From a virus (Duplodnaviria; Heunggongvirae; Uroviricota; Caudoviricetes), in IMG/VR virus record IMGVR_UViG_2606217106_000011, positions 1 to 9,411 of that record: a stretch of DNA of 9,411 nt. One strand, given 5' to 3'. A model generated the notes under the pieces. It had not been told where the DNA came from and ran no database searches. It was given only the letters and a program-made list of their open reading frames with translations. The position numbers and the translations under genes are program-made. Positions 6,572 to 6,904 of this stretch are shown piece after piece (within the stretch, counting starts at the first letter, position 1; each line of letters opens with the position of its first letter).

Positions 6572-6904
6572 ATGAAAATGAAAAGAAACCTTCCGTTAAT
6601 TATTTTGTTGTCTTCTCTGGTGATGGGCTGTACGCAACATAAAACAGATATGCCCCGACAGTTGGTTAAGGCATTACCACAATATCCGGCCTATGCAGCG
6701 GCAAATTATATAAAGGGACGGGTTGATGTGAAGTTTGATATTGGTGCTGATGGTACTGTCACCCGAATTGAGTTTATCCGTTCAGAGCCGCACCATTTGT
6801 TTGATGAGCAGGTTGTAAAGGCGATGGCAAAATGGCGATTTGAGAAGGACAGGCCGTGTAAAGGCGTGAAGAAAACGTTTATCTTTAGTCCTTCTGCACC
6901 CTGA
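6572..6904 (+). CDS. Lipoprotein with TonB C-terminal-like domain (110 aa)
   Basis: Signal peptide with lipobox-like LVMGC (Cys followed by Thr). The C-terminal ~75 aa follow the TonB-CTD pattern: YPAYAAANYIKGRVDVKFDIGADGTVTRIEFIRSEPHHLFDEQVVKAMAKWRFE compared with E. coli TonB [54 protein letters not shown] (from memory). Start could be ATG 6572 or 6578. Confidence 0.7.
   Translation: MKMKRNLPLIILLSSLVMGCTQHKTDMPRQLVKALPQYPAYAAANYIKGRVDVKFDIGADGTVTRIEFIRSEPHHLFDEQVVKAMAKWRFEKDRPCKGVKKTFIFSPSAP

Follow-up and report, generated by a model that had tools for sequence, protein, structure and literature searches.

A Lipoprotein with a TonB C-Terminal Domain in a Moron Cassette of Lambdoid Prophages: A Possible TonB Decoy

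Introduction

What could a temperate phage gain from a lipoprotein that carries TonB's C-terminal domain? The question is raised by the late region of an Escherichia coli lambdoid prophage, found at positions 1 to 9,411 of IMG/VR virus record IMGVR_UViG_2606217106_000011. This whole stretch of 9,411 nucleotides is called the window below. The genes follow one another in the order sialate-esterase-like protein, holin, DUF1327 protein, lysozyme, Rz/Rz1, a small open reading frame (ORF), the TonB-domain gene, YlcI/YnfO, HNH endonuclease and terminase. An initial annotation had interpreted the TonB-domain gene as possibly encoding a TonB mimic. The structural premises of that interpretation hold, since the product is a lipoprotein, has the TonB fold, lies in a moron cassette and is encoded by an intact ORF. 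The binding of TonB boxes and an exclusion phenotype are inferred; the idea of a decoy is plausible, as TonB fragments in the periplasm reportedly interfere with TonB-dependent transport. That an unenergized TonB domain at the outer membrane competes with TonB for TonB boxes, and in this way excludes TonB-dependent phages and colicins, is in our opinion a serious possibility that falls short of being probable.

The Gene Product: A TonB Domain Behind a Lipoprotein Signal

The ORF proposed at 6572-6904 is indeed intact on the plus strand. There are two in-frame ATG codons, at 6572 and 6578, of which the second is favoured because of the GGGA at 6568-6571 and the conservation of the start region with phage 21; the block GGAATrAAAATGAAAAGA is common to both genes. 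The same start is used in RefSeq entry WP_000828068 ("TonB family protein"), located in a 99%-identical locus. The N-terminus, MKRNLPLIILLSSLVMG followed by Cys, reads as a lipoprotein signal peptide, having a basic n-region, a hydrophobic core and a lipobox of the PROSITE PS51257 type, [LVI][ASTVIM][GAS]C (MKRNLPLIILLSSLVMGC). The lipobox Cys is invariant across all full-length homologs in the family alignment, which together with the signal and the lipobox LVMG-C bears out the earlier assignment as a lipoprotein. The residue after the lipidated Cys governs sorting to the outer membrane (the +2 rule). Because this residue is Thr, the mature lipoprotein is predicted to reside in the outer membrane.

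The TonB pattern noticed beforehand in the mature part is recovered by profile searches: Pfam TonB_C (PF03544) matches with 54.8 bits against a cut-off of 24.6 (E 1.3e-14), and TIGR01352 tonB_Cterm with 54.5 bits against a cut-off of 27.1. In a phmmer search of PDB sequences, the C-terminal domains of E. coli and Salmonella TonB come out on top (E 4e-16 to 3e-15). The resemblance extends to the predicted structure. The AlphaFold2 model has a predicted local distance difference test (pLDDT) score above 96 across the TonB domain, and Foldseek aligns it to 1u07, 2gsk_B (TonB bound to BtuB) and 2grx_C (TonB bound to FhuA) with a probability of 1.00, a root-mean-square deviation of 1.0-1.3 Å and target-normalized template modelling (TM) scores of 0.88-0.92. 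Beyond TonB, TolA domains match the fold only distantly. The viral structure library BFVD gives no match at E<=0.001, and the fold is essentially unrepresented in it.

The domain is 37-42% identical to the TonB domains of E. coli and Salmonella (1u07, 2gsk, 2grx, 8rd6) and retains, when aligned to 1u07 and 8rd6, the YP motif, the aromatic positions and strand beta3 (VKKTFIFS) with its edge. All six aromatic positions of TonB stay aromatic (Y163, F180, F202, W213, Y215, here Phe, and F230). The domain differs from TonB in having Tyr for R166 and Leu for Q160, and in lacking a C-terminal tail after beta3. In TonB, residue ~160 touches TonB boxes in vivo, the TonB box pairs with beta3, and Q160L is a classical suppressor allele that restores function when the TonB box of colicin M or FhuA is mutated (PMC11658791). 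The Leu found here is suggestive only as a sign of TonB-box binding, because family members differ at this position (L, Y, Q, K, R, H, A, P). In the model only SPSAP remains after beta3, so that no C-terminal strand would be able to cover the beta3 edge.

Outside this domain the likeness ends. The cleavable lipoprotein signal stands in place of the N-terminal membrane helix of TonB, and only ~8 residues, with no Pro-rich stretch, lie between Cys18 and the domain; a link to ExbB/ExbD is thereby excluded. The NCBIfam TonB equivalog models (PRK10819) reach 60-74 bits against cut-offs of 265-448 and align only at TonB ~152-240. To judge from its sequence, the product is a TonB-domain protein rather than a TonB, because it has neither the membrane helix nor the proline-rich spacer.

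A Self-Contained Moron Cassette

The gene is part of a discrete insertion. The collinear phage vB_EcoS-569R3 is without exactly the 604 bp from 6422 to 7025, which comprise the upstream region, the gene and a 121-bp tail. The edges are marked by an imperfect direct repeat, AACCGGACG on the left and AACCGAACG on the right (Table 1). In the composition profile, the GC content of the cassette is 0.39-0.46, against 0.50-0.59 in the flanks, and all viral contigs with the window allele (type A) have the cassette in an identical insertion context. The 338 nucleotides 5' of the gene are non-coding, in agreement with the upstream region of its own that had been ascribed to it. Discrete insertion, deviant composition and expression signals of its own, the properties by which a phage moron is recognized, are all present, and the slot downstream of the lysis genes may be said to hold a self-contained moron cassette. 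The proposed bor position needs a qualification. The gene does lie downstream of Rz/Rz1, as had been stated, but it does not replace bor: there is no bor in the window, and in phage 21 and uropathogenic E. coli (UPEC) 536 bor/iss adjoins the gene.

A consensus scan detects a promoter-like site within the cassette, with ATGACC, 16 nucleotides and an extended -10 element (TGtTAGAAT). The phage 21 allele, which is 72% identical, has kept the block ATTGT[T/C]AGAATAAGAC, and the extended -10 block shows no variation among 44 distinct type-A cassettes, in which 20% of the upstream sites, 8% of the ORF sites and 20% of the downstream sites are variable. From this site the gene would be expressed in lysogens by its own promoter. 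Read-through from the late promoter is likely as well, because no intrinsic terminator was found after the gene (fold z-score 0.21).

Distribution and Selection

In blastn searches, 1616 of 5426 complete E. coli genomes (~30%) carry the gene, either as type A (~414 genomes) or as the ~75%-identical type B (~1200 genomes). Almost all of these matches are full length, and the sampled full-length ones are annotated "TonB family protein". Carriers include UPEC 536, NC101 and an O25:H4 strain. Phages JLK-2012 and Lys8385Vzw, together with four Stx1a phages, have type A; type B is the allele of the classic phage 21, in whose annotation it bears the name "TonB C-terminal domain protein", and of ev017, Perceval and PhiR phages. 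The type-B gene of phage 21 is situated after bor and before cos, and in UPEC 536 the TonB-domain gene adjoins iss. In a Klebsiella phage, a 40%-identical copy likewise stands between the lysis genes and HNH/terminase. Phage 21 has, in addition, sitABCD (L024:12968-16417, positions 21967-25416 of the record), a TonB-independent iron/manganese importer, which could offset a reduced TonB-dependent uptake or could be there by coincidence.

The gene is under purifying selection. Among the best 80 IMG/VR contigs, the ORF is intact in 80 of 80 and always at the same site, with 19 synonymous and 8 mostly conservative non-synonymous variants; the disruption in close relatives that would have spoken against a TonB mimic is thus not seen in these contigs. 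Between type A and the type-B allele of phage 21, the ratio of non-synonymous to synonymous substitution rates (dN/dS) is 0.13 at a dS of 1.4. The protein database does contain a small number of remnants that are truncated or fused, and the gene figures in one phage record as the "partial tonB-like membrane protein" of prophage CP-933N.

A Wider Family of Lipoproteins with Fur Boxes

HMMER searches, which were exhaustive, and genome scans place the phage protein in a family of ~110-residue lipoproteins with the common signature PxYPxYA, SEPxHLFD and KWRFE. Members occur in Klebsiella, Raoultella, Citrobacter, Salmonella, Serratia, Pantoea and Erwinia and are all named only "TonB family protein". 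The chromosomal members are 38-52% identical to the phage protein and have the same architecture and signature, including the lipobox; they differ in having non-prophage loci and strong Fur boxes. Those of Klebsiella/Raoultella and Serratia are in ordinary chromosomal contexts, lacIZY...yagU-like and ycgN...dsbB. In a neighbour-joining tree the family forms a clade apart from true TonB domains, with the E. coli phage alleles (types A and B) as sister to the chromosomal clade and the Klebsiella phage copy nested within the Klebsiella/Raoultella branch. This suggests at least two phage captures into the same genomic slot, because the E. coli lambdoid and Klebsiella phage copies occupy that slot from separate branches.

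Fur boxes were scored as matches out of 19 to GATAATGATAATCATTATC. Most chromosomal copies have a match of 15-17/19 located 25-64 nucleotides before the start codon, in Raoultella, Klebsiella, Serratia, Pantoea and Erwinia (L004, L006, L008, L010, L013, L014, L017). In the 299 kb of compared loci there are only four matches of at least 16/19, all at family genes, and no shuffle reached them. The chromosomal homologs are therefore very probably Fur-repressed, which implies a role in iron starvation and an unrecognized iron-regulated lipoprotein family in these five genera. Upstream of the window gene the best match is 12/19, a chance level reached by 20% of shuffles, and the phage copies, including those of phage 21 and the Klebsiella phage, are likewise at chance level with 11-12/19.

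In a Pantoea metagenome-assembled genome (L014:4873-6278, 7119-7727), the homolog lies ~1.7 kb from a gene for a pore-forming colicin (Pfam Colicin 2.2e-33) with a putative immunity ORF, and adjoins an integrase fragment. By its gene content, this locus is a bacteriocin island.

Possible Roles

How could such a protein act as a decoy? After lipidation at Cys18 it would be sorted by the Lol system to the outer membrane, where the ~8-residue tether would keep the domain just under the inner leaflet, beside the periplasmic face of TonB-dependent transporters. There, as TonB does, it would use its free beta3 edge to bind exposed strands of TonB boxes by beta-augmentation. The targets would be the transporters FhuA, FepA, Cir and BtuB, or the TonB-dependent colicins and microcins threading through them, or both. 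Uncoupled from the energy source, the domain could not pull, because it lacks a transmembrane helix, contact with ExbB/ExbD and a proline-rich spacer; it would therefore compete with host TonB, and this competition would lower the success of T1- and phi80-type phages and of group B colicins.

There are precedents for each side of this interaction. According to PMC9841981, which cites Howard 2001 and Tuckman & Osburne 1992, overexpression of the TonB domain in the periplasm inhibits the import of iron through TonB-dependent transporters, and both colicin killing and infection by phi80 are lowered by a TonB-box pentapeptide. The recombinant TonB fragments of Howard et al. (2001), as cited there, are, like the present domain, periplasmic and uncoupled from energy, but they are soluble, overexpressed laboratory constructs, whereas here we have a natural gene with its own regulatory region and a predicted outer-membrane lipid anchor. 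Exclusion by a phage lipoprotein that acts on the periplasmic face of FhuA is an established strategy, exemplified by Llp. Llp of T5 and Cor of lambdoid phages are small phage outer-membrane lipoproteins acting periplasmically on a TonB-dependent transporter, and Llp and TonB compete for the periplasmic surface of FhuA. However, Llp binds this one receptor and acts allosterically, while a TonB-domain decoy would recognize the common TonB box of many transporters and colicins. Homology to Llp or Cor was not detected in Pfam (only TonB_C and TonB_2), PHROGs (only phrog_1267 and phrog_34172) or the fold matches (TonB and TolA). Bor/Iss are also small outer-membrane lipoprotein morons, immediately adjacent in phage 21 and UPEC 536, but they are unrelated in sequence, encoded on the opposite strand and have a proposed role in serum resistance; Pfam gives no Bor-family match. 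The domain annotation as such is already known, and the mechanism, if confirmed, would be new among exclusion lipoproteins acting from the periplasmic side.

Further observations speak for a decoy. The phage copies are without the Fur box of their chromosomal relatives and have the invariant extended -10 element; the lambdoid and Klebsiella phage copies, from separate branches, are both found between the lysis cassette and the packaging genes; and a related prophage encodes a parallel "transducer tip on a lipid anchor". The latter is found in the prophage of E. coli SW071611, the closest relative (L001:3448-3876), as a 142-residue lipoprotein (LTTG-C) with a TolA C-terminal domain (Pfam TolA 5.7e-23). 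Its gene, labelled tolA in RefSeq, lies just upstream of the stretch with homology to the window's left end, and a homolog is present in only one phage record (mEp460_ev081). It is possible that this protein is the counterpart of the TonB-domain lipoprotein for the Tol pathway. In a broader interpretation, which we regard as rather doubtful, lipid-anchored TonB and TolA tips would be dominant-negative phage decoys that confer a broad immunity on the lysogen, with the Fur-regulated relatives as the host's own shield. TonB boxes or Tol-binding epitopes would be captured right under the outer membrane, so that the TonB tip would block TonB-dependent phages, group B colicins and microcins, and the TolA tip those colicins that depend on Tol, together with filamentous phages, unlike Llp and Cor, which block one receptor at a time. 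The shield of the host would be switched on when the transporters are derepressed.

Several points weigh against a decoy. Homologs under Fur repression would be produced at just the time when the need for TonB-dependent uptake is greatest, which is odd for a pure inhibitor. A strong constitutive block of TonB would be costly in ~30% of E. coli, which include TonB-dependent extraintestinal pathogens, and carriage by siderophore-dependent pathogens argues against a blunt shut-off. The family-invariant signature (Tyr at TonB R166, SEPxHLFD, KWRFE) could reflect a partner other than TonB boxes. Since the promoter is a consensus match only and a terminator is lacking, expression may come mainly from the late transcript. 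An origin by truncation of tonB is ruled out, as the phage gene belongs to an existing lipoprotein family of Enterobacterales. There is no cor gene or FhuA-type link in the prophages examined, and no PADLOC defence model matches. The idea of self-exclusion was dropped: phage 21 and the closest prophage have lambda-like J and tail fibres and no cor.

Another possibility is that the protein is a factor of iron homeostasis and fitness rather than of defence, with a physiological role in the response to iron starvation. It might park or organize the TonB boxes of idle transporters and so save scarce TonB, or tune gating or signalling, and the phage copy would give lysogens a benefit in colonization, as do bor/iss and the sitABCD of phage 21. 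The Fur boxes of the chromosomal homologs, in contexts that are not prophages, fit well with such a role, as do the high prevalence in pathogenic lineages and the company that the phage 21 and UPEC 536 alleles keep with bor/iss and, in phage 21, with sitABCD. Nevertheless, no mechanism is known by which an unenergized TonB domain would aid uptake, the only experimental precedent for a free TonB C-terminal domain is inhibition, and the phage copies, having lost the Fur box, are uncoupled from iron status. We consider this explanation unlikely.

The same orientation as the lysis genes, directly downstream of them and with no terminator between, could also be taken to mean that the gene is expressed mainly by late-promoter read-through and that the lipoprotein has a late lytic function, either as a spanin-like or envelope-remodelling accessory in lysis and release, or by shutting transporter traffic in the dying cell. 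PHROGs indeed assigns the protein to phrog_1267, "Rz-like spanin", in the category lysis (E 7.7e-43). We rejected this label: the protein is a globular TonB domain without a C-terminal hydrophobic segment, and Rz and Rz1 are encoded separately; most likely it was carried over from the genomic position rather than from homology. As a complete Rz/Rz1 pair is already present, as neither a coiled coil nor a C-terminal membrane segment nor any similarity to Rz/Rz1 is seen in the protein, and as collinear phages do without the cassette, a lytic function seems very unlikely. We give equally little credence to a generic envelope tether or binder, in which the TonB-like fold would hold peptidoglycan, another periplasmic protein or an imported substrate. 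The family-specific invariant residues do differ from those of TonB, and among the fold matches is the C-terminal domain of the TonB homolog FusB, solved with ferredoxin (PDB 9hi3); however, the nearest relatives are enterobacterial TonB domains in TonB-box-bound forms (2gsk_B, 2grx_C), and the region around residue 160 that contacts the TonB box, as well as strand beta3, is kept.

Other Features of the Window

The features in and around the cassette are collected in Table 1.

Table 1. Positions of the TonB-domain gene, its cassette and the neighbouring genes in the window.
Feature	Position	Strand	Evidence or remark
Rz i-spanin	5518..5985	+	Pfam Phage_lysis 1.6e-50
Rz1 o-spanin lipoprotein, embedded in Rz	5738-5923	+	ORF list
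Moron cassette, 604 bp	6422..7025	.	vB_EcoS-569R3 alignment
Left copy of imperfect direct repeat, at cassette edge	6422..6430	.	Sequence
Promoter-like site	6518..6545	+	Consensus scan
Shine-Dalgarno-like GGGA, 6 nucleotides 5' of ATG 6578	6568..6571	+	Sequence; conserved with phage 21
Coding sequence, 108-residue lipoprotein with TonB C-terminal domain	6578..6904	+	ORF, Pfam, RefSeq, viral contigs
Predicted lipoprotein signal peptide and lipobox LVMG-C; Cys18 codon 6629-6631; Thr at +2	6578..6631	+	Sequence
TonB C-terminal domain (E. coli TonB residues ~154-231)	6653..6889	+	PDB phmmer, AlphaFold2, Foldseek
Right copy of direct repeat, 8/9 match	7026..7034	.	Sequence
YlcI/YnfO (DUF3950), directly after cassette	7036..7236	-	
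HNH endonuclease	7278-7643		After YlcI/YnfO
Terminase small subunit	7934-8497		After HNH endonuclease

The post-lysis slot seems to hold more than one optional gene. An 80-residue ORF right after Rz (5991-6233, plus strand; phrog_2571, no Pfam match) belongs to them, since not all of the related viral contigs have it. The non-coding block behind it (6255-6421) shows high conservation whether or not a phage has the cassette, phage 21 included. Within the block is a long-range inverted repeat, TATCCCCGCA...TGCGGGGATA, in which phage 21 has one compensatory change. A structured RNA was considered for the block, taken as 6240-6425, and rejected, with fold z-scores of -0.55 and -0.32 and one stem pair broken by the commonest variant; across the whole window, Rfam gives only a sub-threshold rimP match at 5146-5234. 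A small upstream ORF corresponding to CPT_21_72 of phage 21 was also discarded as a gene, with only its first ~10 codons conserved in the window.

Additional cargo is located within the lysis cassette, between holin and lysozyme: a 330-residue protein with an N-terminal DUF1327 (3104-4096, plus strand; phrog_1085) and a 104-residue ORF on the opposite strand (4103-4417, minus strand; phrog_1853). The SW071611 prophage has a short YdfR-family gene in their place. At the left end of the window, the overlapping ORFs 224-1450 (DUF1737 and SASA) and 1228-2184 (DUF6645), both on the plus strand, are replaced in related prophages by a single SASA-family esterase of ~660 residues; this would point to a frameshift in the esterase gene or to an error of sequencing. 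The esterase-region allele departs from that of the SW071611 prophage after approximately position 800.

Concluding Remarks

The gene is found in ~3 out of 10 sequenced E. coli, and Shiga-toxin phages, the classic phage 21 and uropathogenic strains are among its carriers. It is located beside the much-studied bor/iss locus, yet in the databases it is labelled just "TonB family protein", and full-text searches of the literature found no functional study of this protein. If the lipoprotein is a TonB decoy, it would represent a new, receptor-independent form of phage and bacteriocin exclusion. This would have a bearing on the host range in phage therapy, on the ecology of colicins and microcins, on iron acquisition in pathogens and on the uptake of siderophore-conjugated antibiotics, for example, Trojan horses of the albomycin type.
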